Source of the DNA: Candidatus Lokiarchaeum ossiferum
GTDB lineage: Archaea; Asgardarchaeota; Lokiarchaeia; Sigyniarchaeales; Promethearchaeaceae
Length of the DNA stretch: 32,000 nucleotides
Reading direction: 5' to 3'
Assembly: GCA_025839675.1 (NCBI GenBank)
Contig: CP104013.1
Location: forward strand, 330,001 to 362,000
Shown piece by piece: positions 5,025 to 29,905 of this stretch (position 1 is the first letter of the stretch; every line of letters begins with the position of its first letter). The position numbers and the translations under genes were made by a program. The notes under the pieces are model-generated. The model was not told the origin of the DNA, made no database searches, and was given only the letters and a program-made list of their open reading frames with translations.

Positions 5025-6389
5025 ATGTTGATTAATATGTCAAATTTGGATAAAAACCCACCAACTTTAAAAACCTATCACCAATATCTAATCATTTGGA
5101 TTGGCCAATTGATTTCGCTTATTGGATCAAATATTGTTCAATTTGTTATGATTTGGTGGATAACCATAGAGACGCAAAGCGCTGTATATCTGTCTCTCGC
5201 CACATTCTTTGGATACATCCCCAGTGTAATTTTAAGTCCTTTTACTGGAGTATTAGCCGATAAGGTAGATCGACAAAAATTAATAATTCTTGCGGATTTC
5301 TTGCAAGCTTTTGTGACTTTATTATTAATATGTTCGTTCTATTTCAATATGATGCAGATTTGGATTTATTTCCTTATTATTTCACTTCGTTCCATATTTC
5401 AAACTCTTCAAGGTCCGGCAAAATATGCAATAGTCTCTCAAATGGTTCCAAAAGAAAAACTGGCTCGATTGAATGGATTAGATTATTTCTTCTCAAATAT
5501 TATGAGTTTAATTGGGGCACCAATTGCAGCTTTATTACTCAATTTCTTTGATATTTTCCAGTTGCTATTCGTTGATATTTTTACATTCCTCATTGCCATA
5601 ATTCCATTCTTTTTCATACGAATTCCTAAATTAGCACATATTGGAGATAAAGTCCAATTACCCTCAATGGGTGAGTACAAGGAAGGAATAAAAGAAGGGT
5701 TTCAATTTCTACGAAGAAATGTTGGTTTTTTCAGTTTAATTTTGACGGCATCATTCGTCAACTTCTTCATCATGCCTTTTACTTCTTTGCTTGCCTATTA
5801 TATCAATGTAGATAATGGAGGAACTGAACAGCATTTAGCTTTAGTGATGATGGCTCAGCAAGCAGGATTAATATTTGGGGGGTTAATTACTACCATAAAA
5901 CCAAAGCGGAAGAATCCTATGAAATTCATGCAGTTTATTTTAACTATTCAATTTATTGGATTTGCAATTATTGGACTCGCACCTCTAGGATCCTATTGGA
6001 TAATGAGTCTTGGTATGTTTGTTTCAGGAATGACTTTTCCCTTTACTAATACGATTATCTCAACAATATTCCAAAAAAATGTACCAAATGAAGTCCAAGG
6101 ACGCATTAGCACAGTTTTAGGTGCATTATCAATGTTAATAAGTCCCATTGGGATGATAATTTCAGGACCTTTAGCCAATTTAATGAGTACTAAGCTATTA
6201 TTCATTGTATCGAGCCTTATACCAATATTAGCCATTCAGTTTATCTGGAAATTTACACCTATTATGGACGCAGAAAAAATAGTTCAGGATAACAAATCAT
6301 TAGAAGTGCTCAAAAATCCTGAAATTATGACTGAAGTCGTACCAGTTAATATAAAAGAACCAAGGGAAGAACAGGAATCACTTTCTTGA
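5025..6389 (+). CDS. MFS transporter (about 12 TM)
   Basis: 454 aa, hydrophobic throughout, with the MFS loop motif GVLADKVDRQK between TM2 and TM3. Alternative start at 5037 (MSNLDK). TATA-like CTTTATATATAAC lies about 50 nt upstream. Confidence 0.8.
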   Translation: MLINMSNLDKNPPTLKTYHQYLIIWIGQLISLIGSNIVQFVMIWWITIETQSAVYLSLATFFGYIPSVILSPFTGVLADKVDRQKLIILADFLQAFVTLLLICSFYFNMMQIWIYFLIISLRSIFQTLQGPAKYAIVSQMVPKEKLARLNGLDYFFSNIMSLIGAPIAALLLNFFDIFQLLFVDIFTFLIAIIPFFFIRIPKLAHIGDKVQLPSMGEYKEGIKEGFQFLRRNVGFFSLILTASFVNFFIMPFTSLLAYYINVDNGGTEQHLALVMMAQQAGLIFGGLITTIKPKRKNPMKFMQFILTIQFIGFAIIGLAPLGSYWIMSLGMFVSGMTFPFTNTIISTIFQKNVPNEVQGRISTVLGALSMLISPIGMIISGPLANLMSTKLLFIVSSLIPILAIQFIWKFTPIMDAEKIVQDNKSLEVLKNPEIMTEVVPVNIKEPREEQESLS

Positions 6390-6510
6390 TACCATCTAAT
6401 ATTTAAATTAGTAGAATTTTTTCTTTAATTCCATTTTGGAAAGAATTGAGCTATAATAGAATAATTCCGAGTCCTATAATTATATTAGTATAAAATATGT
6501 ATGAAAGTAT

Positions 6511-6518
6511 AAAAAAAA
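6511..6518 (-). terminator. oligo-T tract (T8 on the minus strand) downstream of the paralog pair
   Basis: A8 on the plus strand, about 29 nt after the stop of the 6547-7836 gene. Oligo-T tracts are the established archaeal termination signal. Confidence 0.3.
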
Positions 6519-6546
6519 GAAGCAATAAAAGTAGTTAGAATCATAA

Positions 6547-7836
6547 TTAAACCAGAAGAATTTTATGAACCGCTTCAACCCACTCCGATTCATCAATATT
6601 GCCTAAATTGCCTGTTTTTATAAATCCTTCAATCTCTGTTTGATATCGTTCTTCTAAGTAATTATTTAAGTAATTTAGCCGTTCCCTAAACGAGTCGTCA
6701 ACAGAATCACTTGTTATTGCAAATATTTTTGCATATTTTCCAACTGCAGCATTAATTTTAAAATTTTGATAATCTACTTCATTTAACATCCCCTTTCCTC
6801 CACTAATTTCTTCTATAAAAGAATCCATCGCAGATAGGAAACCTGAAATCATCAATTCGTTTAATGGCATACCCAATTTTGTTGCGTGAGAAAACATAGA
6901 TAACCCTGAATCATTGGATATTATAAGCAAATTTTTAAAAATATCTTGATATTTCAGATTCTTTTTTGAAGCTTCCATCAAATTGTGAGAGTTTTCTGGA
7001 ATATAGAATAACTGAACATCTTTGGGTCGATAGCTTTGCTTTTCAGAAAATGCATATTTAGAGATTTTTACTACTTGGGATGCTGCACGAATCGGAGTAG
7101 AAGGTAATTTACTAATGTAAGCATTTCTAAGTTCTTCAACTTCACGCTTTGATTTTCCTCCTTTCAATATCCCAAAAATTTGCTCTTGAACAGGATCAAC
7201 CACATATAACCAACAATTCAATTTTTTCATATCTACTAACAGTCTTTCATATCCTATTTTTAAAACTCCGACTGGTGTAGTCACAAAAATTTTCCAATCT
7301 GAGATTTCACCAGCTCTCTCAATATTTAAAAATGTTTCACGATATTTTTCTTGAATATCGTTTCCAGTTAGAATAAATACAGATTCAGTTTTTAAACGCG
7401 GATCTTTTTTAGTTAAATATAGATCAATATTGTATTCTTCATCTTTTTTGTTTTGAAATACGTTAATTTTTAAGTCGGCACAATAATCGGCAAAAATGTT
7501 GATTAAATCAGATTTTGCAATAAAATCAAACATCGCTAAATTACATTGCATCACTTGGGATGTGCAAATGTCTTTCCCGATAAGTTCAACTTTATTTAAT
7601 TTTTCTTTTTTTAACCGTTTTTCAATTATTTCACTCGAGAGATAATAATCCAAAATAATTGTAAGGATTGTATCCTTCTCAAAATGATCTTCAGGATTTA
7701 TTAAAGCTTGGATCAAAGCAAACTTGTGTAAATCTTCAACGGAACTGTGCTCAAATAAACATTCCAAGCATATTAATCCAAATTTTACTGGATTACTTTT
7801 TGATAAAAGTGCAAATTTTTCACGATTTGTTGTCAT
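6547..7836 (-). CDS. hypothetical protein, paralog B of a tandem pair (possible degenerate Mrr/PD-(D/E)xK-like core plus C-terminal longin/roadblock-like domain)
   Basis: 429-aa ORF that shares long conserved blocks with the upstream gene: INIFADYCADLKINVF, SDWKIFVTTPVGVLKIGYERLLVDMKKLNCWLYVVDPVQEQIFG, LPSTPIRAASQVVKISKYAF, GFLSAMDSFIEEISGG. Confidence 0.75.
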   Translation of the reverse strand: MTTNREKFALLSKSNPVKFGLICLECLFEHSSVEDLHKFALIQALINPEDHFEKDTILTIILDYYLSSEIIEKRLKKEKLNKVELIGKDICTSQVMQCNLAMFDFIAKSDLINIFADYCADLKINVFQNKKDEEYNIDLYLTKKDPRLKTESVFILTGNDIQEKYRETFLNIERAGEISDWKIFVTTPVGVLKIGYERLLVDMKKLNCWLYVVDPVQEQIFGILKGGKSKREVEELRNAYISKLPSTPIRAASQVVKISKYAFSEKQSYRPKDVQLFYIPENSHNLMEASKKNLKYQDIFKNLLIISNDSGLSMFSHATKLGMPLNELMISGFLSAMDSFIEEISGGKGMLNEVDYQNFKINAAVGKYAKIFAITSDSVDDSFRERLNYLNNYLEERYQTEIEGFIKTGNLGNIDESEWVEAVHKILLV

Positions 7837-7860
7837 TATTTAGTTCACTTCGCAAACTTT

Positions 7861-9162
7861 TCAAATTGATAAAGTTGATTTAATTAAAGGGACTATGAGA
7901 TGATCTATTGATGCAATTGATTGACCAGTTTCATAGAATAAGTCCAATTCTTCATTAAGTTTTTGCTCAAATAATTTTGTAAACACGGCTAAGCGTTCTT
8001 TAAAAATTTGACCACCACTTTTGGATAATATCGAAATAACTTTAATTTTTTTTCCTAGAATGGCATTTATTGTAAAACCTTGATAATTTATTTCTTCTAA
8101 TTTAGTAGAACCCGAAACAGAAGATACAAAAGAATCAAATGCAGAAAGAAAACCACCCACCATTTGTTCATCAACATCTTTCTGTTTGTATGAATAAATT
8201 GTCAGACCTGATTTTTTATCCAGAATAATTAGCGAACGAAATATATCAATAAACATTGGTTTTATTAATTTGGAGTGTTCCATCATTTTGGATACCGCTT
8301 GGTCTGAAAAGAAGAATTTACGGTAAATTTTATGCTTATATGCATATTTCTCTTCAAAAGCATATTTTGAAATTTTAACCACTTGTGAGGCGGTCCTTAA
8401 TGGTGTGGAGGGGAGATTAGTGATATATTCATCACGAAGATTTGAGTCTTCATTTTTTGATGTTTTTCCTTTTTCCACTCCAAATACACGTTTTTGAACA
8501 GGATCAACTATATACAACCATGTGTGTAATCGCTTCATATCAGCAAGTAATTTATCCATTCCAATGATTAAAGCCCCAATTGGAGTAGTTACAAACAGCT
8601 TCCATTCTGAAATTAAGGTAGATCTGGCAAGAGAAGACAAGATTTTTTCATAATCTTCCACCTTTAATTCAAATCCGGTCCGAACTATTACTGATTCGGT
8701 GGTTACGAATACTCCTTTTGTTTTTTTAATAAGATATGCGTCAAGATTGTAAATTTCATCGTTTAAAACACGATACACATTGATACCAAGATCTGCACAA
8801 TAATCGGCAAAAACATTGATGAGTTCTGTTTTGCTCACAAAATCGAATAGAAATTCATTTGATGTAACTGGGAGCAACTTTAGGAGATCGTCTCCAAGAT
8901 AATGGATAGAATCGAGATAAGAAGATTGAATCGCTTTTTCAGATTGATATTGGTTGTAATAAAAATGAAGAATTTTGTAGATAATTTTCTGTTTTTCTTT
9001 TATCTCATCGGTAGCAAGAATTATTCCTTTCTTCTGGCATAATTGTAAAAGATCCTCGATCCGGGATCTAAATAGTATTTCATCTACGGAAATATAATGA
9101 TATCTAAATGAATTCTTAGCGCTCATCTTATTTACAATATCTAGGAGCTGTGCTTCTTCCAT
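7861..9162 (-). CDS. hypothetical protein, paralog A of a tandem pair (same architecture as 6547-7836)
   Basis: 433-aa ORF, 24 nt upstream of paralog B on the same strand. Conserved blocks: INVFADYCADLGINVY, SEWKLFVTTPIGALIIGMDKLLADMKRLHTWLYIVDPVQKRVFG, LPSTPLRTASQVVKISKYAF, GFLSAFDSFVSSVSGS. A TATA-like TTTTTATAAG (minus strand, about 9181-9192) lies 20-30 nt upstream of the ATG. Confidence 0.75.
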   Translation of the reverse strand: MEEAQLLDIVNKMSAKNSFRYHYISVDEILFRSRIEDLLQLCQKKGIILATDEIKEKQKIIYKILHFYYNQYQSEKAIQSSYLDSIHYLGDDLLKLLPVTSNEFLFDFVSKTELINVFADYCADLGINVYRVLNDEIYNLDAYLIKKTKGVFVTTESVIVRTGFELKVEDYEKILSSLARSTLISEWKLFVTTPIGALIIGMDKLLADMKRLHTWLYIVDPVQKRVFGVEKGKTSKNEDSNLRDEYITNLPSTPLRTASQVVKISKYAFEEKYAYKHKIYRKFFFSDQAVSKMMEHSKLIKPMFIDIFRSLIILDKKSGLTIYSYKQKDVDEQMVGGFLSAFDSFVSSVSGSTKLEEINYQGFTINAILGKKIKVISILSKSGGQIFKERLAVFTKLFEQKLNEELDLFYETGQSIASIDHLIVPLIKSTLSI

Positions 9163-9346
9163 TAATCACTATTAAACGTTTTCTTATAAAAACACTTATT
9201 TAATGATTTATCTTTTTTTAACGAAAAATACTTTTAGATTAAAATGTCTCCATTTTATGACCATTTGAATAATTGAAAAGGAAAGAGTTGTATAATTAAT
9301 ATAATTTATTTAAAAGGAGAAGCAACAAACTAGAAACGTGGTAAAA

Positions 9347-9874
9347 ATGCTCACGGAAGATGAATTTGCTAAAAGTGCTGGTTTAAAAGTGGGAGATATG
9401 GCACCTGATTTTTCTCTAGTCAATACCGATGGTGAAATCAAAGTATTATCCCAACTCTATAAATCGAGTCCTTTAATCGTGAATTTTTTTCGAGGCTCTT
9501 ACTGAGTGCCTTGCAAAGAATTTTTTGTGAAAATAAACCAAAATTTGGATAAATTTAAGAAAATTGGGGCAAAAATGATTTCAATTGCTATTGATAATCC
9601 GAGAAAATTAAGAAAATTCAAAGAAGTCAATAAATTTGACTTAGAGATTTTAGTAGATCGCCGAGGTGCGATATCTAAAAAATATAATGTGTTTACTACT
9701 GGAACTAAAGCGGATCATAAATCTCTAAAATTTCGAATCTCGATTCCCTCAACATTTTTAATAGATGAAACTGGAATAATAAGATGGCGGTTTATAGGTA
9801 CCAGAGAAATAAGACCATCAATTGATTCTTTAATCTCCAATTTTGAGAAAAATTTTCCAAATAGAACTGTCTAA
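9347..9874 (+). CDS. peroxiredoxin-like thioredoxin-fold protein (AhpC/TSA, PRX_like2-type), predicted selenoprotein with in-frame TGA (Sec) at 9503-9505
   Basis: The ATG at 9347 gives MLTEDEFAKSAGLKVGDMAPDFSLVNTDGEIKVLSQLYKSSPLIVNFFRGSY, then TGA, then the same frame continues VPCKEFFVKINQNLDKFKKIGAKMISIAIDN... (the ORF track starts at the GTG right after the TGA). Together they form one 175-aa redoxin domain with a U-V-P-C motif where the family has CxxC. Confidence 0.7.
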
Positions 9875-9948
9875 AAGATCAACCCCTGTTGCAGAAAACA
9901 TAAGGTGTAACAGAGTTAATCGTAGCAATCGATTGATCTTTTTTTTTT
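9873..9948 (+). promoter_or_regulatory. nested stem-loop plus T10 tract in the 3' UTR of the TGA-containing gene (candidate SECIS-like element and/or terminator)
   Basis: The outer 10-bp stem AAAAGATCAA (9873-9882) pairs with TTGATCTTTT (9933-9942). An inner 8-bp hairpin CTGTTGCA (9886-9893) / TGTAACAG (9906-9913) has one G-U pair and the loop GAAAACATAAGG. A T-run follows at 9939-9948. Confidence 0.4.
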
Positions 9949-10067
9949 CATTTTCATCAATTTCATCAATTTTATCAGAAATCTCTAATTCTAAATTAAA
10001 CTTCAAATTAATTCTATTTTTTATTTTAAACATATTTATTAAGGTTAAGATAAAAATTGTATAAAGT

Positions 10068-11186
10068 ATGTTCCGAGAAGAGTTGGAAGAATTAGTTGTT
10101 CAAGAAATGCCAAATTGTATTGGCTGCAATGAATGTATGCGGGTGTGTCCCGTTTCAAAAGACCCCGGAATGACAATTTCAATGCTAAATGATCCAATTC
10201 TGTCAAACACACCCCCTAAAGGGATAGTAAGAGATTTTGCCCTGAATTGTATACAATGTGGAGAATGTGTTCCCGTCTGTCCCCCTGGGGTTCGGAGAGA
10301 TTTAATGGTGCTCTATTTGAGGGCAAACATATCTTCCTATCCATCGAATTACGAAAATTATGTCATGCTAAAGCAACCTAACCCTTCCCAAATAGCAAAG
10401 GGATTATATGCTGTAAAAAGGCGATCCGCAAAAAAAACTCTAGGAAATTTATATGATAAATGTGATCCCAAAGTGTTAAAAAAGGCGAAAGTATTATTCT
10501 ATCCGGGTTGCTACATTTTTAACGAGATCTGCCATAAAACGACTGCAATTTTAGATTACCTTAAAGAAGATTATGAAGTCTTGGGGGGTTATACTTCATG
10601 CTGTGGATGGCCCCAATATTTGCAAGGACGAATGGAAATGGCCGATGAATTTTTGGAAAGTTTATATAAATATATTATGAAAGTAGACCCAGAATATATA
10701 ATTACCACATGTGCGGAATGTTTTGCCGCTTTACGTAAAATCAAAGCAATGAAGAATGTAAAATTTATACCTCTAACTACCACTGAATACTTTTTATCTA
10801 AAGCAGATTTACTGCCCTTAATTAAGTCAAAAAAAGCATATGGATTTCACGATTCATGCCATATATCGCGAAAATACTTTCGAGATGAAGCCCCTCGTAT
10901 ATTATTATCAAAACTTGGTGAAGTTTACGAATTAAAAGATAATCGTGAGCAATCAAGTTGTTGTCATTATTACAATTTTGAAAATGATGCAATAAATTAT
11001 ACTAACCGCAAAGAGCGGATAGAGCAAGTTAAATTAGGCTCTGATACTATGTTAACCGATTGTATTACGTGTTATGAAGTCTTTAAGGAAAAAATGGAAA
11101 AGGAAAACCTTGAAATCGTTGATTTCAATGATTTGATATTTGAATGCATACATAAGGAGGCATCCAAAGAAGATCAAAGCGAATAA
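10068..11186 (+). CDS. HdrD/GlcF-like Fe-S oxidoreductase (2x [4Fe-4S] ferredoxin motifs plus 2x CCG domains)
   Basis: CIGCNECMRVCP and CIQCGECVPVCP, then CCG-type Cys motifs (YPGCY...TSCCGWP...CAEC and HDSCH...SSCCH...CITC). No SD-like sequence. An AT-rich TATA-like box at 10034-10051 suggests a near-leaderless transcript. Confidence 0.8.
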   Translation: MFREELEELVVQEMPNCIGCNECMRVCPVSKDPGMTISMLNDPILSNTPPKGIVRDFALNCIQCGECVPVCPPGVRRDLMVLYLRANISSYPSNYENYVMLKQPNPSQIAKGLYAVKRRSAKKTLGNLYDKCDPKVLKKAKVLFYPGCYIFNEICHKTTAILDYLKEDYEVLGGYTSCCGWPQYLQGRMEMADEFLESLYKYIMKVDPEYIITTCAECFAALRKIKAMKNVKFIPLTTTEYFLSKADLLPLIKSKKAYGFHDSCHISRKYFRDEAPRILLSKLGEVYELKDNREQSSCCHYYNFENDAINYTNRKERIEQVKLGSDTMLTDCITCYEVFKEKMEKENLEIVDFNDLIFECIHKEASKEDQSE

Positions 11187-11202
11187 AAGATTTGTGATTA
11201 AT

Positions 11203-12483
11203 ATGGTAAAAAAATATAAACCTGGAATTGTTGTTATTGGTGGAGGTCAAGCAGGAATACATGCAATTGAGGAGATTCGCAAGTCCGATGGTAAAATCCG
11301 TATTTATTTGATTGATCATGACAAACATTTGTTTTATTTCCGTGCTGCTTTGAAATATTTTGTAAAGAAGCAAATCGAATTACCCAATTTGAATGCACGT
11401 ATGGACAATTTCATTAAAAAAAGCAATGTGACTTTTTTTCAAGATGAAGTGAAAAATATAGATAGAGATCATCAATTTGTTTATACTGAGAATAGTTTAG
11501 AAATTCCCTATACTAAATTGCTAATTGCTACGGGAGGGATCCCTTTCATTCCTCCAAGTTTAAGAAAGGACGTTGACGGAATATTTCCAATGCATTCTTT
11601 GGAAGATACTCTCAATATTTGTGAAAAAGCAGATTCTGGAATATACAAAAAGATTGTAATTTTAGGAGCAGGTGTACTAGGTACAGAACTTGCAGAGTCA
11701 TTGATAGAACGAGGTGTTTCAGTTTCAATTCTTACTCGGGGATATGTTTTAGTTCCAAAAATGTTGGATACAAAGAGCTCCGCAATTGTGGTCAAGAAAT
11801 ACCAAAAATTAGGTATGGATATCCAATTCAATGAATCAATATCTGAAATCCATACTGATGAATCTGGGCAATTAACAGCAATTACAAACTCTAAAAATGA
11901 AAAAATAGAATGTGATTGTTTGTGTGTATGCACAGGTATTCGTCGCAATATTCAACTTGCCCAAGAATGCAATTTAGAAACAGATAATGGAATTAAAGTA
12001 AATCAATTCCTTCAGACGAGTGATCCAAACATCTTCGCAGCGGGGGATGTAGTGGAATATTATATTCCTGAATTAAAAACTCACAAGTTGATTGATTTAT
12101 GGGGACCTGCTGGAAAGATGGGGAAAATTGCAGGAAACAATATGACTAGGGATCACATTACTTATAACTTGGGCACTTTCCATGCTTATACAATATTTGC
12201 AGGACTGAATTGCCATGTAATTGGAGAATTTAATCCCAAGAACCCATCTGAGTATGAGATTTTAGAAACGGAATATTTAGTTCGGGATCAAGTTTGCCTG
12301 TTTAGACTTATTTTGCAAGATAATCTCATTAAAGGAGTGTTTTCACTCGGTGAAGCTCGACATCCAATGATCCTGGAAAAAATTATCACTTTAAAAAAAC
12401 AAATTCCTTCCAATATCACGAAATCGATGCTCTTAGAAAGAGGGTTTGATTTTGAACGTATCTTATACTATCAAGAACATTAA
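11203..12483 (+). CDS. FAD/NAD(P)-dependent oxidoreductase (pyridine nucleotide-disulfide oxidoreductase fold; rubredoxin/ferredoxin-reductase-like, no N-terminal redox Cys seen)
   Basis: IVVIGGGQAG and IVILGAGVLGTELAESL dinucleotide folds and an AAGDV motif. The ATG at 11203 lies 16 nt after the HdrD-like stop; the ORF-track start at 11140 overlaps the upstream gene and adds a non-homologous leader. Confidence 0.8.
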   Translation: MVKKYKPGIVVIGGGQAGIHAIEEIRKSDGKIRIYLIDHDKHLFYFRAALKYFVKKQIELPNLNARMDNFIKKSNVTFFQDEVKNIDRDHQFVYTENSLEIPYTKLLIATGGIPFIPPSLRKDVDGIFPMHSLEDTLNICEKADSGIYKKIVILGAGVLGTELAESLIERGVSVSILTRGYVLVPKMLDTKSSAIVVKKYQKLGMDIQFNESISEIHTDESGQLTAITNSKNEKIECDCLCVCTGIRRNIQLAQECNLETDNGIKVNQFLQTSDPNIFAAGDVVEYYIPELKTHKLIDLWGPAGKMGKIAGNNMTRDHITYNLGTFHAYTIFAGLNCHVIGEFNPKNPSEYEILETEYLVRDQVCLFRLILQDNLIKGVFSLGEARHPMILEKIITLKKQIPSNITKSMLLERGFDFERILYYQEH

Positions 12484-12492
12484 GGGAAAAAA

Positions 12493-13374
12493 ATGGTTTT
12501 CAATTGGTATATTCTGTTGATAATGGTAGGGTATGCCTTTTTTAACGGAATAGGATCCTTAGGCTTTAAATTAGGTCTGAAAAAAATAGATAAACCTTCT
12601 GTTTCACTACAAAATCTTTCAAAAGAAAATCGAAGTGCTTATATTCAGTTATTAAAAACACCAATTTGGTTATTTGGATGGCTTTGTTTAGGGATCGACT
12701 TTCTAATATATCAAATAGCGATAAAAAATTATGATCTCTCTGTAATTAAGCCTTTGGTCAACTTGAATTTAATTTTTGTAATCCTCTTTGGAACTATAAT
12801 TTTAAAGGAGAAAATTGGACTTTTCGAATGGATTGGAATCACATTTATAATTCTTGGAGCAATTATGATAACTCTGTTTAGTACACCCTCAGAAACAAAT
12901 ATTAATTTGCCTAAATTGATAATCTTCATTGGACTCATTTTGATAAGTGTAGTTTTGTTAGTTATTGCAAATCAATTTACCTCAATAGATAATAAGGAAC
13001 TAATTTTAGGATGTTTTTCGGGAATATTGTACGGCACAGGATCAATTTTTAATAAAGCAGCATATTCCACAAATAATTCTTATTTTCTAACCATAGTATT
13101 TATTATATTTTTTGGAATTTCATATGGTTTCGCATTTTTAAGTGGGCAAAGTGCCTATTTAAATGGAAGAATGAGCATTGTGTCAACTTTAGTAAATGTT
13201 TTTAGCATATTAACTCCCTTCATTGGAGGGATTTTGATTTTTGAAGAAACACTCATAATAGATACCCCAATAGGTTGGATGAAATATTTGAAGATAATTG
13301 GGTTAATTTGTATTCTTTTAGGAATAGCTTTTACTTCTATCAAAAACGGAAAAGAGAATAACTCTCCAGATTAA
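12493..13374 (+). CDS. EamA/DMT-superfamily-like membrane transporter
   Basis: 293 aa with about 9-10 hydrophobic helices in a two-halves arrangement. It starts 9 nt after the preceding gene, so it is probably in the same operon. Confidence 0.6.
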   Translation: MVFNWYILLIMVGYAFFNGIGSLGFKLGLKKIDKPSVSLQNLSKENRSAYIQLLKTPIWLFGWLCLGIDFLIYQIAIKNYDLSVIKPLVNLNLIFVILFGTIILKEKIGLFEWIGITFIILGAIMITLFSTPSETNINLPKLIIFIGLILISVVLLVIANQFTSIDNKELILGCFSGILYGTGSIFNKAAYSTNNSYFLTIVFIIFFGISYGFAFLSGQSAYLNGRMSIVSTLVNVFSILTPFIGGILIFEETLIIDTPIGWMKYLKIIGLICILLGIAFTSIKNGKENNSPD

Positions 13375-13402
13375 TAGCATTGAATCGCTGGTTATACAAT
13401 GT

Positions 13403-14419
13403 TCATCTAATATTTTCCACCTTATGTTGAAAATTCTTAATTTTTGCAAGTCTTTGGGTAATATCTTTAAATTTTTCAAAAAGAGGTAAATTGTTAATTT
13501 TACCAGAAATTTCAGTGTCAAAATTAACCCAATTGTACCAAATATGCCCTTCCATTGATTTTATAGGCATATGAGAAAAAATACGATCTAAATATTGCGG
13601 ATCTTCAGTATAACCATATTCTGCGATAATGTATGGCTTTTTATGCTTTTGAGTTTGTTTTAAGACCTTTAGAAAGTTTTTTTGGTATTGTTTAAAATCA
13701 ATATTGGATTTTTTTGCCATAAACTTCAGATATTTGACCATTAGTGGATATGAGCGCAAAATAATTTTAGGAAAAATGGAATATATCTTCGCTGCATCTT
13801 CAAGAAACATCTGAAAGACCGCACCTACATCTTCTTCATCATTACGAGAGATAGAATATTTGTACATGAAATAATCGGCCCCAATAATATCAGCATTATA
13901 ATATTTTGGGAAATTTAGATTCGCATTCGTTACAATTGTAGGTCGATTGGTTTTTTTTGAAATATTTTTTTGCACGGCATCAAGATATCGATGAGGGGAT
14001 AATAATCCATGATAAACTTCATTATTTATGCAGTAAATAATGATATTAGGATACTTTTCAGCAGAATATTTTTGCAAAAATTGATCCAAAATGGATAAAG
14101 AAGGTTTCAAATTCCAGTTTACTGGTAGGTTCATTACAATGTTAATTCCTTCTTCACCTAAGATCTTCAAACCTCCATCTGGAATACTCGAAATATGCTG
14201 GCCATTTAGAATAGTGGGCCATATTCTGACCGTATTAATATTCATTTCTTTGAGTAATGGGATGATATTCTGGATTAATTCAATAGAAGCCATTTTTGGA
14301 GTATAAATTTGACGAGGGTCTTTTTCTAAACGAAACTTATCCAAAAATAAATTCATTCCTTGAAGAAAGAATCTTTCTCCATTGAGATATAACTTTTGAT
14401 TGATAATTTCAAATTCCAT
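13403..14419 (-). CDS. TIM-barrel glycoside hydrolase-like protein (clan GH-A features), no signal peptide
   Basis: The N-terminal LYLNGERFFLQGMN resembles the start of GH2/GH5 catalytic domains. CINNEV (an NE acid/base-like motif) and IIAEYGY (a nucleophile-like E) are spaced about 130 aa apart. Confidence 0.5.
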   Translation of the reverse strand: MEFEIINQKLYLNGERFFLQGMNLFLDKFRLEKDPRQIYTPKMASIELIQNIIPLLKEMNINTVRIWPTILNGQHISSIPDGGLKILGEEGINIVMNLPVNWNLKPSLSILDQFLQKYSAEKYPNIIIYCINNEVYHGLLSPHRYLDAVQKNISKKTNRPTIVTNANLNFPKYYNADIIGADYFMYKYSISRNDEEDVGAVFQMFLEDAAKIYSIFPKIILRSYPLMVKYLKFMAKKSNIDFKQYQKNFLKVLKQTQKHKKPYIIAEYGYTEDPQYLDRIFSHMPIKSMEGHIWYNWVNFDTEISGKINNLPLFEKFKDITQRLAKIKNFQHKVENIR

Positions 14420-14638
14420 TTATTTCCCAAGTTCCTCGATTCAAATTTTATTTTTTACATAAATTGATTTTTAAATTGATTATGCTCTATATTTAATTGA
14501 ACACACTTATTAAGGTTAAGAATTTCAATATTAAAAGGTAGATTTTATTCATATTAGGATTAGCATGATATCGATAGAAAGATAAAATGTATTTTCTTAT
14601 GAGAATTTGACTATTGAAGAATATAAGGATGGGAAATA

Positions 14639-15412
14639 ATGCTTGATACGAGACTTAATAAAAGCAAACTGTCAAAAAAAATTGAAGCAATAGCGGAAAA
14701 GTATCTGCTTACCCATATTTCAGCTAATAAAATGACCATTATAGGATTAATACTAGGTATTCTGAGTTCGATTTTGTTTATTTTTCCTTATGTATTGAAT
14801 TTGAACTCCGGATTTCAGCAAGCTTTAGTCTTATTTGAAACGGATGTCAAGAATAATTCTTTAATACAAGCATTTAGAAACAGCCTATATCAAGCACATT
14901 TATTGAATTGGACATGGCAGCTAGGAGACACCTTTTTCTTATTAAGCTTGGTAATGATGCTTCTTTCATTTACTTCTGATGTTTTTGATGGTCCACTTGC
15001 TCGTTTAAAAAAGCCCACAATATTTGGAGGAATATTAGATATATTCTGTGATCGGACAGTAGAACTCGCTTTGATAATTGCAATAGTTTTCTCAGATCGA
15101 GAAAAACTCGGATTTCCTGGTAGTATTGCTATTAGTTCTATTGTTCTCTGTATCAGTATTTTTCTGCTCATTGGTGGCGCAGTTAATCGTTTGCAAGAAA
15201 AAAACTTAAATCAACAAGCAAAAGTAATTTTTTATTCCACGGGAATCATGGAACGCACCGAAACATTCATTTTCATATTACTAATGATGGTGTTTTCGAT
15301 CTTTCGCTTATTTTTATTGTACTTGTTCGCATTTTTAGTCTTTTTAACTGCATTTCAACGATTTTATAATGCTTATAAAATGTTCTATAAAAAATCCAGC
15401 AAAACTGAATAA
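14639..15412 (+). CDS. CDP-alcohol phosphatidyltransferase family protein (polar lipid head-group synthesis)
   Basis: Signature D-x2-D-G-x2-A-R...G-x3-D-x3-D is present as DVFDGPLARLKKPTIFGGILDIFCDR. Multi-TM protein. Confidence 0.8.
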   Translation: MLDTRLNKSKLSKKIEAIAEKYLLTHISANKMTIIGLILGILSSILFIFPYVLNLNSGFQQALVLFETDVKNNSLIQAFRNSLYQAHLLNWTWQLGDTFFLLSLVMMLLSFTSDVFDGPLARLKKPTIFGGILDIFCDRTVELALIIAIVFSDREKLGFPGSIAISSIVLCISIFLLIGGAVNRLQEKNLNQQAKVIFYSTGIMERTETFIFILLMMVFSIFRLFLLYLFAFLVFLTAFQRFYNAYKMFYKKSSKTE

Positions 15413-15721
15413 AATAGGATGTTTCCAAGATAAAAAAAAAATTTTTTGAATATGTGCTTATATTTCTTTTTTTTTATACAAATTCCTTAATATTTTCTAA
15501 AATGTGCTGATGAATTCTTGTTTAATCAAGTAATATTTAAGGATGTCGGTAATTTCATTGATTATAAACATATTATGAAAATTTAATTTGAAATATAATT
15601 TTTTTTCAACTAACATTTTTAAGTATAAACAGTGGACCTTTTATCAAGTAAAATCTAATCATAAATTAGAAATTTGATATACAACGTTTTTTTTTAATAC
15701 ATCAAGTTTGAGGTAAATAAA

Positions 15722-16093
15722 ATGGACTATTTAAAATGTAAGCACTGTGATGAACTCTTTGAAAAAGTTTTTGAAGGTTCAGTTTGTGATGAACACGGTT
15801 GTGCCTGCAACGATATGGATGTTGTAGAGCCAAAGACCGCTGACTGGAAAAATGAAAAACATGTCCCCGTTGTGGAAAAGACAGAAAAAGGAATTAAAGT
15901 AACTGTTGGATCTACTCTACATCCGATGGTTGATGATCATTGGATAACAATGATTGAAGTTGTAAAGGATAATATGCAATATCGGGCTTATCTAAAACCA
16001 GGCGATGCCCCCGTTGCTGAATTTCCAATTGATGATGTAAACGTTCTTGCGCGCGAATATTGTAATAAACATGGCCTTTGGGCTAATAAATAA
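15722..16093 (+). CDS. dfx: superoxide reductase, desulfoferrodoxin-type (2Fe-SOR-like)
   Basis: The N-terminal Cys-rich desulforedoxin-like module is CKHC...CDEHGCAC. Centre II ligand motifs are EKHVPV, HPM and CNKHGLW. SD-like GAGGT lies 8 nt upstream. Confidence 0.85.
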   Translation: MDYLKCKHCDELFEKVFEGSVCDEHGCACNDMDVVEPKTADWKNEKHVPVVEKTEKGIKVTVGSTLHPMVDDHWITMIEVVKDNMQYRAYLKPGDAPVAEFPIDDVNVLAREYCNKHGLWANK

Positions 16094-16133
16094 ACTTTTT
16101 TCATTAACTATTTAATAAAATGTGATAAAAAAT

Positions 16134-16637
16134 ATGACTAAATCTGAAGAAGACCTGATGGCGGCCTTTGCTGGAGAAAGCCAAGCTAACCGAAAATATC
16201 TCGCATTTGCAAAAAAAGCAGATAAGGAAGGATTTAAACAAGTTGCAAAAGTGTTCCGAGCTGCTGCTGCTGCAGAAACAGTCCATGCACATAATCATCT
16301 CCGAGCTGCTGGAGGAATAAAAGATACTGTTTCAAATGTAAAAGCTGCTATAGAAGGCGAGCACTATGAATTTTCAAATATGTATCCGGAAATGTTAGAA
16401 CATGCAAAGCAAGATGGAAATAAAAAAGCAGAGCAATCCTTCCATTGGGCAAACGAAGTCGAAAAAATCCATCATAAATTATACTCTGGTGCATTAGAAG
16501 CGATAGAAAAGAAGGAAGATCTCCCAGAACAAGAGATGTATATCTGTCCTGTCTGTGGTTTCACTGTTGAAGGTGAAGTCCCAGATCTTTGTCCCGTCTG
16601 TGGTGCTAAAGGATCCACTTTCCAGTTGATTGAATAA
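16134..16637 (+). CDS. rbr: rubrerythrin
   Basis: The ferritin-like di-iron domain (EEDLMAAFAGESQANRKY, EGEHYE, EVEKIHH) is followed by a C-terminal rubredoxin-like CPVCG...CPVCG. The ATG at 16134 is preferred over the GTG at 16122. Confidence 0.9.
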   Translation: MTKSEEDLMAAFAGESQANRKYLAFAKKADKEGFKQVAKVFRAAAAAETVHAHNHLRAAGGIKDTVSNVKAAIEGEHYEFSNMYPEMLEHAKQDGNKKAEQSFHWANEVEKIHHKLYSGALEAIEKKEDLPEQEMYICPVCGFTVEGEVPDLCPVCGAKGSTFQLIE

Positions 16638-16648
16638 ACCGAGAGAGA

Positions 16649-17605
16649 TCATTTAATTTTACATTTTTTTTCCTTTAATTCTTGAAGCCATTTGGAGACT
16701 TCTTCTGATTCAATAGATATTTTATCTTTTCCAAACCAAAAATATCGCAATTTTTCTAAATGAATGAGAGAATCAGGTATTTTTTTTATGGGATTATCTG
16801 CTAATATCAAATTTTGTATTTCAGTCAAATTACCGACCCATTCGGGTATTTTTGTAAGTTCATTTCCGAATAAGTTAAAATCTTGTAAATTTTTTAGAGA
16901 CTTTAAAGAATCGGGCAATTTTTTTATTTTATTTCTAAATAATGATAACTCTATTAGATTTTCAAGCTTCCCTATTTCATTAGGCAAATCTACCAAACAG
17001 TTATCACCGAGAGTCAATTCTTTTAATAAGCTCAGATCACCAATCCAAGTAGGAATTTTTTTAATTTTATTTTTATATAAAACCAATCGAGTTAATTGTG
17101 TCATTGTTTGAAGCCAATCTGGAAGTTGCTCTAAATTCAATCCAAATAAATAAATATGTTCTAATGTTTTAATAGAAGACAACCATTCTGGAATTTCTTG
17201 AAGAGGATTTCCCCCAATATTTAAAGCCTTAAGCTTCTTAACTTTACGAATCCAATTTGGTATTATTTTGAAATAATTATTTTGAATATGGAGTTCAGAA
17301 AATGCTTCTAAGTGCTGCAAATTTGAGGGAATGCTGGATATTTCATTATTGGCGATCCATAAATAATTAAGCGATCGTAATTTTGTAATGGAATCCGGAA
17401 GAATCTTCAATTTTTGATTTTGCAAAGCAAGTGCCAATATACGCCCTTCACGCGCAATAAATCCAAACATATTTCGATTAAAGCGAGAGATTGCAGGAAT
17501 TGGTTTCGAAATAAGCTGCTCAATTTCAAGTAAACATTCGCACTCTTCTTTATGTAGTTCAATATTTTGATAAACTTCGAGATTTTGGGAGTTTTTATCT
17601 ATCAT
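16649..17605 (-). CDS. leucine-rich repeat (LRR) protein, about 10-11 repeats of 23 aa
   Basis: Regular LxxLxLxxNxLxxIPxxI periodicity, for example LKELTLGDNCLVDLPNEIGKLEN and LIELSLFRNKIKKLPDSLKSLKN. No GTPase, kinase or other fused domain. Confidence 0.85.
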   Translation of the reverse strand: MIDKNSQNLEVYQNIELHKEECECLLEIEQLISKPIPAISRFNRNMFGFIAREGRILALALQNQKLKILPDSITKLRSLNYLWIANNEISSIPSNLQHLEAFSELHIQNNYFKIIPNWIRKVKKLKALNIGGNPLQEIPEWLSSIKTLEHIYLFGLNLEQLPDWLQTMTQLTRLVLYKNKIKKIPTWIGDLSLLKELTLGDNCLVDLPNEIGKLENLIELSLFRNKIKKLPDSLKSLKNLQDFNLFGNELTKIPEWVGNLTEIQNLILADNPIKKIPDSLIHLEKLRYFWFGKDKISIESEEVSKWLQELKEKKCKIK

Positions 17606-21224: not shown

Positions 21225-21348
21225 CTTAATCTTTTATTAGTAAAATGACCTAAATAGTCTGTGATTTATTTTGAATGCAATTCTTATAAAAGGCTCGTTA
21301 TAAAATAAAAGAAAAAATCGATGAAGAAACTAAACTTCATATCCTTAA

Positions 21349-21468
21349 TTAAATACGTTCAAAATCATCTGGATCGGTAGCTCCACAAACGGGACATTGT
21401 TCAGGTGGATCTTCTGTTTCTATTCGTGATTTCCATCCACAAACGGTACATCGCCAATAACTTTTCAT
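21349..21468 (-). CDS. 39-aa rubredoxin-like zinc-ribbon protein (not in ORF track)
   Basis: The reverse strand reads MKSYWRCTVCGWKSRIETEDPPEQCPVCGATDPDDFERI, with two CxxCG knuckles and ATG/TAA bounds. A hairpin plus T-run follows it, and it lies 124 nt upstream of the OFOR alpha gene. Confidence 0.55.
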   Translation of the reverse strand: MKSYWRCTVCGWKSRIETEDPPEQCPVCGATDPDDFERI

Positions 21469-22318
21469 TTTTTTTAATCACCTTATTCTGATTCTTATTA
21501 GATTCGCAATTTGTTTTAGAATATTAACTTTTTTCTTTGATTTTTAAAGATTTTCATTTAACTCTAAAAACAGTATTTTAAAGAATCTAAAATCAATTTT
21601 GAATTCATCTGGTATATGTTTTTTAGTTTTTTTTTAACAGAGAAACTAATTAGAGGGTCAAGAATAACATCCAGATTGATTTTGATGGTTTTACGAAATT
21701 CTTGATTATAATCCAGAATTTTATAAAAATTCTAATATTATCTTCTGAAAAATCCACTTTTGGATTTTCCTCAATCGATTCATAGTGAAATGGATCATTT
21801 TAAGTTTTTTTTTTACCATAAGTCGAGAAAATATGATCATTTAACTGGGAGTATGGATCGGAGACAATCCATATTGCATTTAAATATGCAGACTAGTTTG
21901 TTGTAAATTATTTAATATATAAGGAAATGAGATGAAAATACGAAGGTTTTAATATTTAACTTGACTTAATTAATATAAGAAAATATTACTACTTTAAAAC
22001 AACATCAAACAAACATTTATCAGCATTAGGTAATATTTATTTAAGAGTTGAATTATATGATACAAGAAAACTGGATTTTGGAAGAATTAGAACGTTATGA
22101 TCAATCTCTGCTTGATCAACAAAGTGAAAATGCAATTAGAAGACAAGTAAACCACGAATCATTGTTAACCTCTAAAAAAAACGCTCATGCTTATAGAGGA
22201 TAATCCTTTTTTTCTCAAAATTAAACCAAGTTTATCATTATTTTATATAGTAATTTTTAAAGTACTGTCCAAAGTTAAATCTAGCCGATAGTCAAATAAA
22301 TTCATTTTTCAATCTAGA

Positions 22319-26202: not shown

Positions 26203-27057
26203 ATGATAATAGCAATTTTTGCTATGATTGGTCGCATAATTCTTCTAGGATTTGAGCGCATTTTATTTAAAAAAGCAGGAAAAGATCAAAACTCTTTGGT
26301 TTCAACATTTTGGTTATTCGGTCTAGCGGCAGTTTTTCAAATCCCCCTTTTATTTATTTACCCTTTTACATTCCAAGATTTCTTAAATGCAGCCCCAAGT
26401 GCAGGAATTTACACTATTACATTCTCGATATATGTTTATGTGCTTTCAAATTATGAAGTTTCCTTAGTAACTCCTTTTTACAATTTCAATGTGTTCTTTT
26501 TGTTATTGTTGTCTGTCATTTTTCTTGATGAAGCATTTACAATCTTCAAAATTCTGGGTATATTTTTACTTTTCTTTGGTACTATATTTCTAAATAAGAA
26601 TGAAAGTATATTAGAATCCTTTAAATCAGTTTATAAGAACCGAGGCTGCCAGTTAATGATTGTGGTATCTTTACTAATGGCAGTGGGTCGAGTACTTGAT
26701 CGGAATATGATAGAAGAAACATCCCCTCCAATCTATTCCTTTGCCCTATATTTCTTAACGGGATTGTATATTGGAATTATTTTACTATTTCAACGAAAAG
26801 GGAAACTAATTGTTGAGTCATTTAAGTCCCAACCGAAAGAATTTTTAGCTGGTGGAGCGGCAAATGCGTATTCCTATTTATTTCTGTTAATTGCTTTTAC
26901 TGAAATGGAAGTTTCCGTAGCGGAGCCTTTATCTATGCTGTCAGTTATCTTGTCAATCATCCTATCTTATTTCTTTTTTAAAGAAAAAATAAAAAATCGA
27001 CTTATTGGAGCATTGATCATGTTTTCTGGTGCAATTTTGCTTGTAATAGGAATTTAA
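26203..27057 (+). CDS. EamA/DMT-superfamily membrane transporter (about 10 TM)
   Basis: 284 aa with two internally similar five-helix halves. Its stop overlaps the stop of the convergent gene (27054-27057). Confidence 0.65.
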   Translation: MIIAIFAMIGRIILLGFERILFKKAGKDQNSLVSTFWLFGLAAVFQIPLLFIYPFTFQDFLNAAPSAGIYTITFSIYVYVLSNYEVSLVTPFYNFNVFFLLLLSVIFLDEAFTIFKILGIFLLFFGTIFLNKNESILESFKSVYKNRGCQLMIVVSLLMAVGRVLDRNMIEETSPPIYSFALYFLTGLYIGIILLFQRKGKLIVESFKSQPKEFLAGGAANAYSYLFLLIAFTEMEVSVAEPLSMLSVILSIILSYFFFKEKIKNRLIGALIMFSGAILLVIGI

Positions 27058-29165: not shown

Positions 29166-29344
29166 TGTTTAATAATCACACACTATTTGATGTATAACAA
29201 CCTATACCTTACAATTTGAAAAGAGAAAATTGCAATCTAATATGAATTATAATGTTTAGGATAAATTTCCATTTGGGGATTTATGGAAGACTTCATATAT
29301 ACAATCTTGTCTAATAGGAAGTGTAAAAGAAAGAAGTGAAAAAT

Positions 29345-29905
29345 ATGGATGTAAATGTTGCATTAGAAAAAAGACGAGCGTATCGGTCGCTAACTAACGT
29401 CGAAATTTCAGATGAAATAGTAGAAAAATTGGGAAAAGCCGCTCAATTGATGCCCAGCTGTTTCAATAAACAACCTTGGAGATTTGTTTTTGTTAAAGAT
29501 GATCCTAATTTAAATCGATTAAAGGAAGAAGCATTAAATGAAGGAAACCGATGGGCAAAAGAATCTTCTATGATAATTGCAGTATTCACAAAAAAAGATT
29601 TGGATTGTGTGATAAAAGATCGAGAATATTACATGTTTGACACAGGTATGGCCGTTTCCGCGATTTTACTACGAGCAACAGAATTGGATTTGGTCGCTCA
29701 TCCAATTGCAGGATATTCTCCAGAAAAAGTCAAAGAAATATTAGAAATTCCAGATGAGTATACAGTAATTACCCTCTTAATCATTGGAAAAAAAAATGCA
29801 GAAATTCCAGATTATTTTGATGATTGGAAACGTAAAGCTGAAAGTACCCGACCAGAACGATTGAAATTGAAGGAATTTGTTTTTACAAATAAATTCCGAT
29901 CATAA
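29345..29905 (+). CDS. nitroreductase-family flavoprotein
   Basis: The N-terminal LEKRRAYRS and SCFNKQPWRF motifs are typical of the FMN nitroreductase fold. The ATG at 29345 is preferred over the GTG at 29336. Confidence 0.75.
   Translation: MDVNVALEKRRAYRSLTNVEISDEIVEKLGKAAQLMPSCFNKQPWRFVFVKDDPNLNRLKEEALNEGNRWAKESSMIIAVFTKKDLDCVIKDREYYMFDTGMAVSAILLRATELDLVAHPIAGYSPEKVKEILEIPDEYTVITLLIIGKKNAEIPDYFDDWKRKAESTRPERLKLKEFVFTNKFRS

Follow-up and report, generated by a model that had tools for sequence, protein, structure and literature searches.

A 32,000-nucleotide stretch of the Candidatus Lokiarchaeum ossiferum genome (contig CP104013.1, positions 330,001 to 362,000 of the forward strand; hereafter, the window) carries two adjacent minus-strand genes, A and B, whose products are unmistakable paralogs of 433 and 429 amino acids (aa). 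We found that both belong to an undescribed protein family restricted to Asgard archaea. The family joins a predicted PD-(D/E)xK (restriction-endonuclease-like) fold to a C-terminal longin domain, an architecture absent from the literature searched, and seems more like a housekeeping adaptor than a defence nuclease. The explanation that we favour, with a probability of about 0.4, is that its members dimerise into a longin platform that is non-canonical, probably has no nuclease activity and is linked to the synthesis of membrane polar lipids via a neighbouring CDP-alcohol phosphatidyltransferase.

The gene pair and its family

Exactly two minus-strand open reading frames (ORFs), both read in the same direction, are present at the site. 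The pair and its flanking signals are as follows.

7861..9162, minus strand: gene A, 433 aa, upstream member of the pair (ORF list)
6547..7836, minus strand: gene B, 429 aa, downstream paralog (ORF list)
7837..7860, minus strand: A/B intergenic spacer of 24 nucleotides (nt), aaagtttgcgaagtgaactaaata (inspected sequence)
9183..9190, minus strand: TATA-like box TTTATAAG, ~25 nt upstream of the ATG of A
6511..6518, minus strand: T8 run, 29 nt past the stop codon of B

A first-pass annotation, made from the letters of this stretch, had proposed two co-directional genes of these lengths with a 24-nt spacer, and the ORF list and the sequence agree with it. The short spacer is consistent with co-transcription. 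The upstream box and the downstream T8 run that it listed are also present; the box is statistically not distinctive, the surrounding spacer being ~70% A+T in a window that is itself A+T-rich (G+C ~32%), while the T8 run is a candidate archaeal terminator.

In a BLASTP comparison, A and B were 41% identical over 413 aa (E 2e-102), and their local alignment score was 781, as against 43 +/- 6 for shuffled B (200 shuffles). Divergence is uneven along the protein, since identity runs from 22% in the N-terminal 106 aa through 38% in the C-terminal domain and 51% in the central domain to 87% in the segment LPSTP(L/I)R(T/A)ASQVVKISKYAF. The paralogy claimed by the first-pass annotation was thus confirmed, as was its description of a diverged N-terminus alongside near-identical blocks, every one of which is present in the translations.

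Among 5.8 billion proteins searched, 73 were strong full-length homologs of ~430 aa, all without Pfam domains. The best homolog of A was a hypothetical protein of Ca. Lokiarchaeum ossiferum (98% identical), and the remaining named ones were annotated as "hypothetical protein" of Promethearchaeota (Loki) or Hodarchaeota metagenome-assembled genomes (MAGs). When the family profile was run against 1.84 billion cluster representatives, ~40 full-length clusters were recovered, the named ones including Helarchaeota, and a pattern-based scan of GTDB species genomes yielded 64 loci with 71 full-length members. The labels of these loci (as given by submitters, like all MAG labels here) were Promethearchaeota/-ia, Hod- and Hermodarchaeota, together with thirteen "uncultured archaeon" bins; none was that of a non-Asgard MAG. 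A profile search with the central domain recovered fragments of the same family and nothing else, some of them labelled Thorarchaeota. Every relative with a source name thus comes from an Asgard genome or MAG. Given the 73 strong full-length homologs and the 71 full-length members in 64 loci, A and B are real, conserved genes. Mean identity within clades of the family is 76% in clade II and 66% in clade I.

Neither single-sequence nor profile searches gave a significant Pfam, NCBIfam or PDB-sequence match to the family, in line with the earlier remark that no described family was known. Among 44 members there was no match to the Pfam Robl_LC7 model, and one weak match (E 0.0034), in a single member, to Fuz_longin_1. 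PADLOC defence models gave 0 matches for 4 members, PHROG models did not match the family, and no viral relatives were found in IMG/VR contigs.

Predicted structure

Full-length A was modelled as a monomer with AlphaFold2 (AF2) from the 44-sequence alignment. The model had a mean predicted local distance difference test score (pLDDT) of 86.4 and a predicted template modelling score (pTM) of 0.87; the high pTM indicates that A is modelled as one compact particle. The model predicts four parts: a helical N-domain, a PD-(D/E)xK-type domain, a segment that we call the strap, and a longin domain.

8845..9162, minus strand: A residues 1-106, predicted mostly helical N-terminal domain, poorly conserved (AF2; A/B 22% identity)
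8416..8844, minus strand: A residues 107-249, predicted PD-(D/E)xK (restriction-endonuclease-like) domain (AF2, DSSP, Foldseek)
8347..8415, minus strand: A residues 250-272, strap (alignment of 71 members, AF2)
7864..8247, minus strand: A residues 306-433, predicted longin domain (AF2, Foldseek, alignment)
7108..7527, minus strand: B residues 104-243, putative PD-(D/E)xK-like domain (D138, K149, E151, V153)
7039..7107, minus strand: B residues 244-266, strap motif LPSTPIRAASQVVKISKYAFSEK (sequence)
6550..6945, minus strand: B residues 298-429, putative longin domain (by homology to A)

DSSP assignments on two AF2 models placed the elements of the central domain of A in the order helix 111-124, strands 128-131, 142-147 and 153-160, helix 168-183 and strand 187-192, followed in the model by two helices and a beta-hairpin. 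This alpha-beta-beta-beta-alpha-beta core topology is that of the PD-(D/E)xK type. The second model comprised A residues 98-304 alone (pLDDT 82) and was built to test the idea, prompted by matches of the full-length model to Rag GTPases, that the central domain is a degenerate G domain. Foldseek comparison of this model with BFVD gave 11 matches at E<=1e-3. The best was a viral (phage) MmcB-like DNA-repair protein (E 2.4e-5, TM-score 0.72, root-mean-square deviation (rmsd) 3.0 A, 141 columns), with weaker matches to a "nuclease", UL24, a "restriction endonuclease" and DUF2726 proteins. No PDB match fell below E 1e-3; the high-probability ones, all with E>1e-3, were led by PaqCI (0.97) and FokI (0.91) and also included Mus81-Eme1, BsaWI, HindIII, SfsA, EndoMS and Bax1. 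A G domain was not among the matches in either database. We therefore rejected the G-domain idea: nucleases were matched instead, there is no P-loop, and the Rag superpositions are poor (rmsd 17-20 A).

The topology, together with the MmcB-like, UL24, FokI and PaqCI matches, supports a restriction-endonuclease-like core at the level of the predicted fold. The Mrr-type PD-(D/E)xK core suggested by the first-pass annotation stood as to topology and fell as to the Mrr label. Even with the threshold relaxed to E<=10, Pfam Mrr_cat (PF04471) matched neither A nor B nor the 44 members; by fold, the closest matches were MmcB-like and type IIS nucleases.

The active site of this fold is altered. In A numbering, D141 at the start of beta2 is kept in 69 of the 71 members, and E156 in beta3 in 59, being replaced by G, A or S in all 12 members of clade II. 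Position 158, that of the canonical Lys, is Val in 66 members and hydrophobic in 71/71. Since this position is never Lys, the family does not have a complete catalytic D...(D/E)xK motif. The first reading of A and B, with Asp and Glu retained and the canonical Lys missing, agrees with the alignment and with both sequences. Position 154, two residues before the Glu, is R or K in 69/71 (Thr in A, Lys in B). Judging from these substitutions, the family is probably non-nucleolytic, and we infer that a nuclease fold without its canonical chemistry has been reused as a binding or structural module.

The strap, a basic stretch with consensus LPxxP(I/M)RAxSQVxK(I/L)SxYxFxE, is the most conserved segment of the family, and P251, R256 and S265 are invariant (71/71). 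In A it lies in an extended yet ordered segment (residues 250-305) of the AF2 model. As its pLDDT stays at ~90 even in the model without the longin domain, the strap is predicted to pack on the nuclease-like domain, whose groove it may occupy. The linker region carries a strong positive charge (+7 in A, +5 in B). A conserved Gly/Lys loop, G228-x-x-K231-G-K-(K/T)234-S-K, follows the hairpin in A and closes the nuclease-like domain. It formally fits the Walker-A pattern GxxxxGK[ST] in 6 of the 71 members, including B (GILKGGKS, 222-229); the match sits in the loop after the beta-hairpin and not in the P-loop position.

The longin domain and its use in other proteins

In the C-terminal domain of A, strands 308-315 and 321-326, helix 332-348, strands 356-360, 363-369 and 373-379 and helix 384-401 are followed by more helices; the domain contains the SGFLSAxDSF helix and the EEINYxGF hairpin. 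This order is that of a longin (beta-beta-alpha-beta-beta-beta-alpha, no N-helix, extra C-helix) as defined in PMC10933270. When full-length A was compared with the PDB using Foldseek, Rag/Gtr GTPases and LokiRagO ranked first (~275 columns, rmsd 17-20 A), and were followed by AP2-sigma, LAMTOR2-5, zeta-COP, Sec22b, VAMP7-like longins, MglB and MK-D1 Roadblock2. The C-terminal matches had a probability of 1.0, E of 1e-4 to 3e-3 and target-normalised TM-scores of 0.45-0.61, and the C-terminal domains of Rag proteins were matched too. Topology and structural matches together place the domain in the longin/roadblock superfamily, so that the earlier call of a longin/roadblock-like C-terminus is upheld for the last ~125 aa.

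Longins of the GTPase-activating protein (GAP) type, such as FLCN, NPRL2 and SMCR8, are marked by an arginine finger and by a GP motif in the loop joining beta1 to beta2 (PMC12290439). The GP motif was not found in the beta1-beta2 loop of the family, where the consensus is D-x-x-S-G with invariant G319 and no Pro; the sole near-invariant Arg of the domain is R390, in the helix after the sheet. A GAP-type identity was rejected, as the GP motif and the arginine finger are both absent from the family.

The family profile also matched hundreds of other proteins via residues ~280-430 only (996 matches at E<=1e-3). The few of these longin-only matches that have a source name come from Asgard MAGs and one Korarchaeota MAG. 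Fusion partners of the longin-like domain in other proteins include a DEAD-box helicase and arrays of winged-helix/PCI domains. The domain was also seen 10-30 residues after a predicted transmembrane helix in receptor-like Asgard proteins of 1100-1950 aa (P0145, P0146, P0155, P0156, P0160), which have an N-terminal hydrophobic segment and FG-GAP/beta-propeller and Ig-like (immunoglobulin-like) domains; by analogy, their layout resembles that of a transmembrane receptor with a cytoplasmic longin output. This spread of architectures agrees with the shuffling of Roadblock/longin modules in Asgard archaea reported in 10.1101/2020.10.19.343400, and suggests that the longin module is a cytoplasmic, often membrane-proximal adaptor.

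A stand-alone, longin-only version of 154 aa was observed at 6085-6549 of locus L065 (on the complete chromosome CP070805.1) and at 34-501 of L066, matching profile positions 280-433 with an E of 3e-63. The N-terminal and nuclease-like parts are missing from this protein; its gene has the customary surroundings (DUF1499, CxxC protein, DsbH, nitroreductase), except that the phosphatidyltransferase is absent.

Genomic neighbourhood

Neighbouring ORFs of the 64 non-redundant loci were clustered, and synteny was found to follow the family tree. The order in the main clade is Fer4, CCG, an HdrA-like FAD protein, sometimes a HAD hydrolase, CDP-alcohol phosphatidyltransferase, the family gene or genes, DUF1499 and a 149-aa CxxC protein; beyond the latter, on the opposite strand, lie a DsbH-type thioredoxin, a nitroreductase and AhpC. 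The phosphatidyltransferase gene (CDP-OH_P_transf) directly adjoins a family gene in 35 of the 64 loci; the two share a strand in 34 and are separated by a median of 75 bp. The phosphatidyltransferase gene may lie upstream, downstream or between two family genes, so the adjacency has outlived rearrangements. Its best NCBIfam match is archaetidylinositol-phosphate synthase, at 69-73 bits far below the cut-off of 180; by sequence, the neighbour is thus a divergent CDP-alcohol phosphatidyltransferase resembling that enzyme.

Clade II has another set of neighbours, consisting of an ABC transporter, two to three tandem winged helix-turn-helix (MarR/TrmB-like) genes, a PEMT/ICMT-like methyltransferase, a radical-SAM enzyme, a polyprenyl synthetase, a metallophosphoesterase and a 198-aa Ras-family GTPase. 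In 7 of the 12 loci of clade II, the family gene is followed on its own strand, after ~2.7 kb, by the GTPase gene (Pfam Ras, E 2.5e-29). An example of this neighbourhood is seen at 4821-11944 of L061, and likewise in L045, L053, L055, L056, L058 and L060; the Ras-family GTPase has no CaaX box. The combination of GTPase, prenyl synthase and ICMT-like genes is suggestive. As clade II genomes are closely related (76% identity), their synteny amounts to about one observation. GTPase genes were found neither in the window nor within 6 kb of the family genes of clade I or the W clade, and a regular-expression search for G1/G3/G4 motifs among neighbours gave 2 loci. No defence genes occur in the window or among the family neighbours, and no repair or replication gene context was seen around the family genes.

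The window holds the main-clade gene set in rearranged form, along with further redox genes.

9347-9874, plus strand: AhpC/TSA-like redoxin, next to A
10068-11186: CCG protein (Fer4+CCG, HdrD-like)
14639-15412, plus strand: CDP-alcohol phosphatidyltransferase, ortholog of the gene that adjoins the family gene in 35/64 loci
15722-16093: desulfoferrodoxin-family protein
16122-16637: rubrerythrin
27054-29165: DsbH-type thioredoxin
29336-29905: nitroreductase

The pair thus lies within a redox-rich region (9347-16637 and 27054-29905) that also includes a pyridine-nucleotide-disulphide oxidoreductase. AhpC, the CCG protein, the DsbH-type thioredoxin and the nitroreductase recur near family genes in other Asgard lineages.

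Copy number

A single family gene is present in 52 of the 64 loci and two in 11, in one of which the phosphatidyltransferase gene lies between them; in L042 (5702-6987), a family gene is split into ORFs of 97 and 305 aa by a frameshift, pseudogenisation or an assembly error. By genome, at least two paralogs occur in 17 of 53 bins and one copy only in the other 36, counts that are limited by the pattern-based scan and by MAGs that may be incomplete. Co-resident paralogs are nearly always from different clades (I + alpha in 5 bins, Ib + alpha in 4, I + II in 4, W + W in 2), a pattern that fits a longin-mediated heterodimer. A and B each have one ortholog in the Promethearchaeum sp. pair at locus L006, so their duplication predates the split from that organism.

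The first-pass annotation had seen in the duplicated pair a possible defence or signalling module. We do not retain that idea: homologs occur mostly as singletons in housekeeping contexts (52/64 loci single-copy), an outcome that the annotation itself had named as speaking against its idea, and their neighbours are lipid, redox and transport genes. As there are no PADLOC or PHROG matches and no viral copies, a defence system was rejected.

Possible functions of the family

In the explanation that we favour, A and B would be co-transcribed paralogous subunits of a soluble, Asgard-specific four-part protein. To our knowledge, side-by-side pairing is seen in every characterised longin/roadblock protein; the longin domains of A and B would pair likewise to give an A-B heterodimer, and those of single-copy genomes a homodimer. 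The dimer would sit on the cytoplasmic side of the membrane and act there as a platform for docking or regulation, functionally coupled to the divergent CDP-alcohol phosphatidyltransferase in polar-lipid head-group synthesis or membrane homeostasis, with the degenerate nuclease domain and the basic loop acting as a ligand- or partner-binding module. The lipid link is drawn from the adjacency of the phosphatidyltransferase gene in 35 of 64 loci and from the PEMT/ICMT-like methyltransferase and polyprenyl synthetase genes near clade II members. Membrane-proximal use is suggested by related longin domains that directly follow the transmembrane helix of receptor-like proteins.

Several observations weigh against this explanation. 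In the window itself, the phosphatidyltransferase gene is not adjacent to the pair but 5.5 kb away on the opposite strand, and much of the synteny could be gene order inherited among related Lokiarchaeia. A transmembrane helix or a recognised lipid-binding domain was not found in family proteins, and both AF2 models are monomers. With one copy in 36 of 53 bins, a heterodimer is not obligatory. As to loss of activity, D141 is near-invariant and E156 is invariant outside clade II, and the basic residue at 154 (69/71) and conserved K231 and K234 could stand in for the lost Lys.

The last point also counts in favour of the view that the family is an active nuclease or DNA-repair enzyme of the MmcB-like kind, with a non-canonical site and longin-based regulation or dimerisation, two-copy genomes having a catalytic/non-catalytic heterodimer as in Mus81-Eme1 or XPF-ERCC1. 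Lysine migration is known within the PD-(D/E)xK superfamily; the best fold match is to an MmcB-like DNA-repair nuclease, Mus81-Eme1, EndoMS, SfsA and Bax1 are among the PDB matches, the linker is basic, and where clade II has lost E156, the co-resident clade I paralog retains it. The (D/E)xK lysine position is nevertheless hydrophobic in all members, A has no basic residue at 154 either, the strap that packs on the nuclease-like domain in the models may fill its groove, and the family has no repair, replication or defence context and no PADLOC match; this view is distinctly improbable. Even less probable is a nucleic-acid-binding regulator, in which the inactive nuclease fold and basic loop would bind DNA or RNA while a longin-like sensor or dimerisation module controls the neighbouring redox and lipid genes. 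The basic Gly/Lys loop and linker, the fusions of longin-like domains to winged-helix/PCI arrays and a DEAD-box helicase, and the two to three tandem winged helix-turn-helix genes flanking clade II members would suit such a role. But no recognisable DNA-binding domain was found in the family protein, PCI-type winged helices are often protein scaffolds and not DNA binders, and the genomic context is broad, with no single regulated operon.

A more serious, if still unlikely, alternative is that the longin dimer acts as a platform of guanine nucleotide exchange factor or GAP type for an Asgard Ras/Rab/Arf/Rag-like GTPase, the pseudo-nuclease head being accessory, in a Rag/Ragulator- or MglB-like layout. 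Roadblock/longin proteins are generally GTPase platforms, the top full-length Foldseek matches are Rag/Gtr and LokiRagO followed by LAMTOR and MglB, and a Ras-family GTPase is encoded downstream in 7 of 12 clade-II loci. That clade counts as about one observation, however, and in the Rag alignments the roadblock part alone superposes. The GAP-longin features are absent (G319 is invariant, there is no Pro, and R390 is the only near-invariant Arg). The lack of a GTPase gene within 6 kb in the window, clade I or the W clade also speaks against this role, although it is weak counter-evidence, since Asgard GTPase genes rarely share operons with roadblock/longin genes (PMC10933270). Least probable of all would be an Asgard analogue of a Rag-type heterodimer in which the GTPase head has been swapped for a pseudo-nuclease and which controls, or is recruited by, an inositol-phospholipid synthase. 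If it were true, the family would represent a prokaryotic forerunner of the coupling of eukaryotic longin regulators (TRAPP, Mon1-Ccz1, Ragulator) to phosphoinositide-defined membrane identity, and the clade II set of Ras-like GTPase, polyprenyl synthetase and ICMT/PEMT-like methyltransferase would follow the same logic.

Other features of the window

The AhpC-like gene next to A (9347-9874, plus strand) contains an in-frame TGA at 9503-9505, at the redox-active position (...NFFRGSY-[TGA]-VPCKEFF..., a U-x-x-C motif); the ORF list covers only its 3' part, 9506-9874. From its sequence context, the TGA is a candidate selenocysteine codon, which would make the product a selenoprotein peroxiredoxin or redoxin. 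Directly past the stop codon (3' region 9872-9950), a stem encloses a hairpin and is followed by a T10 run. The fold of 199 nt from this region was no stabler than shuffled sequence (z -0.8), and no Rfam match to a selenocysteine insertion sequence (SECIS) element was obtained; Rfam scans of the window gave nothing significant. Neither an ORF of at least 60 aa nor an Rfam match is present in a 1.1-kb interval (21225-22318) that separates a DUF599 gene from a 2-oxoacid:ferredoxin oxidoreductase alpha-subunit-like gene. A 318-aa protein encoded at 16649-17605 (minus strand) consists purely of leucine-rich repeats (LRR_8, E 3e-25), with no adjacent Roc/GTPase domain, and a 390-aa ORF at 29940-31112 (plus strand) has no Pfam match at E<=1e-3.

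Comparison with known systems

Longin/roadblock proteins are central to the debate on eukaryote-like membrane regulation in Asgard archaea, and almost none has a known partner or function. The present family is well conserved and easily modelled, has a close homolog in cultured Lokiarchaeum ossiferum, and comes with a reproducible partner gene, that of the phosphatidyltransferase, which gives a concrete, testable partner hypothesis for an Asgard longin protein. Testable questions are whether a longin platform binds or regulates a lipid head-group synthase, and whether the paralogs heterodimerise. In addition, the family provides a case of a nuclease fold taken over as a non-canonical module, and illustrates that a defence-like architecture can be a vertically inherited housekeeping gene.

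With MmcB-like, FokI- and PaqCI-type nucleases the family shares the alpha-beta-beta-beta-alpha-beta core, the Asp at the start of beta2 and the Glu in beta3. It differs from them in the replacement of Lys by Val, the loss of the Glu in clade II, the lack of profile similarity to Pfam nucleases and the position of the domain between helical and longin domains. The presence of paralogous nuclease-fold subunits, one of them more degenerate (clade I keeps E156, clade II does not), is reminiscent of Mus81-Eme1 and XPF-ERCC1; those proteins, in contrast, dimerise via helix-hairpin-helix domains and not via longins, and in the family the better paralog is also without the Lys.

Like Rag/Gtr proteins (RagA-RagC, Gtr1-Gtr2, LokiRagO 8yl2), family members have an alpha/beta head followed by a C-terminal roadblock/longin domain, and there can be two paralogs per genome, adjacent in the window as for one MK-D1 Rag-like pair. 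Such pairing is seen in 11 of 64 loci, and at least two paralogs in 17 of 53 bins. Unlike in Rag/Gtr, the head has a nuclease fold without G1-G5 motifs and superposes poorly (rmsd 17-20 A). In overall architecture the protein is akin to a Rag GTPase whose G domain has been exchanged for a pseudo-nuclease. A G domain with a P-loop and G1-G5 motifs was tested for and is absent, and the family therefore does not belong to the Rag family.

The closest parallel is the Asgard multidomain Roadblock/LC7-longin superfamily, with 130 asCOGs (Liu et al., 10.1101/2020.10.19.343400) and structures in Tran et al. 2024 (PMC10933270). In the literature searched, there is no description of a longin fused to a PD-(D/E)xK fold. 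The family is likewise restricted to Asgard archaea, has the longin topology and the same structural neighbours (LAMTOR, MglB, MK-D1 Roadblock2, AP sigma, Sec22b), and uses a longin module that is promiscuously shuffled among architectures. It differs from the proteins of that superfamily in lying outside the Pfam Robl_LC7 and Longin models and in having its own strap motif and a lipid-synthase neighbour.

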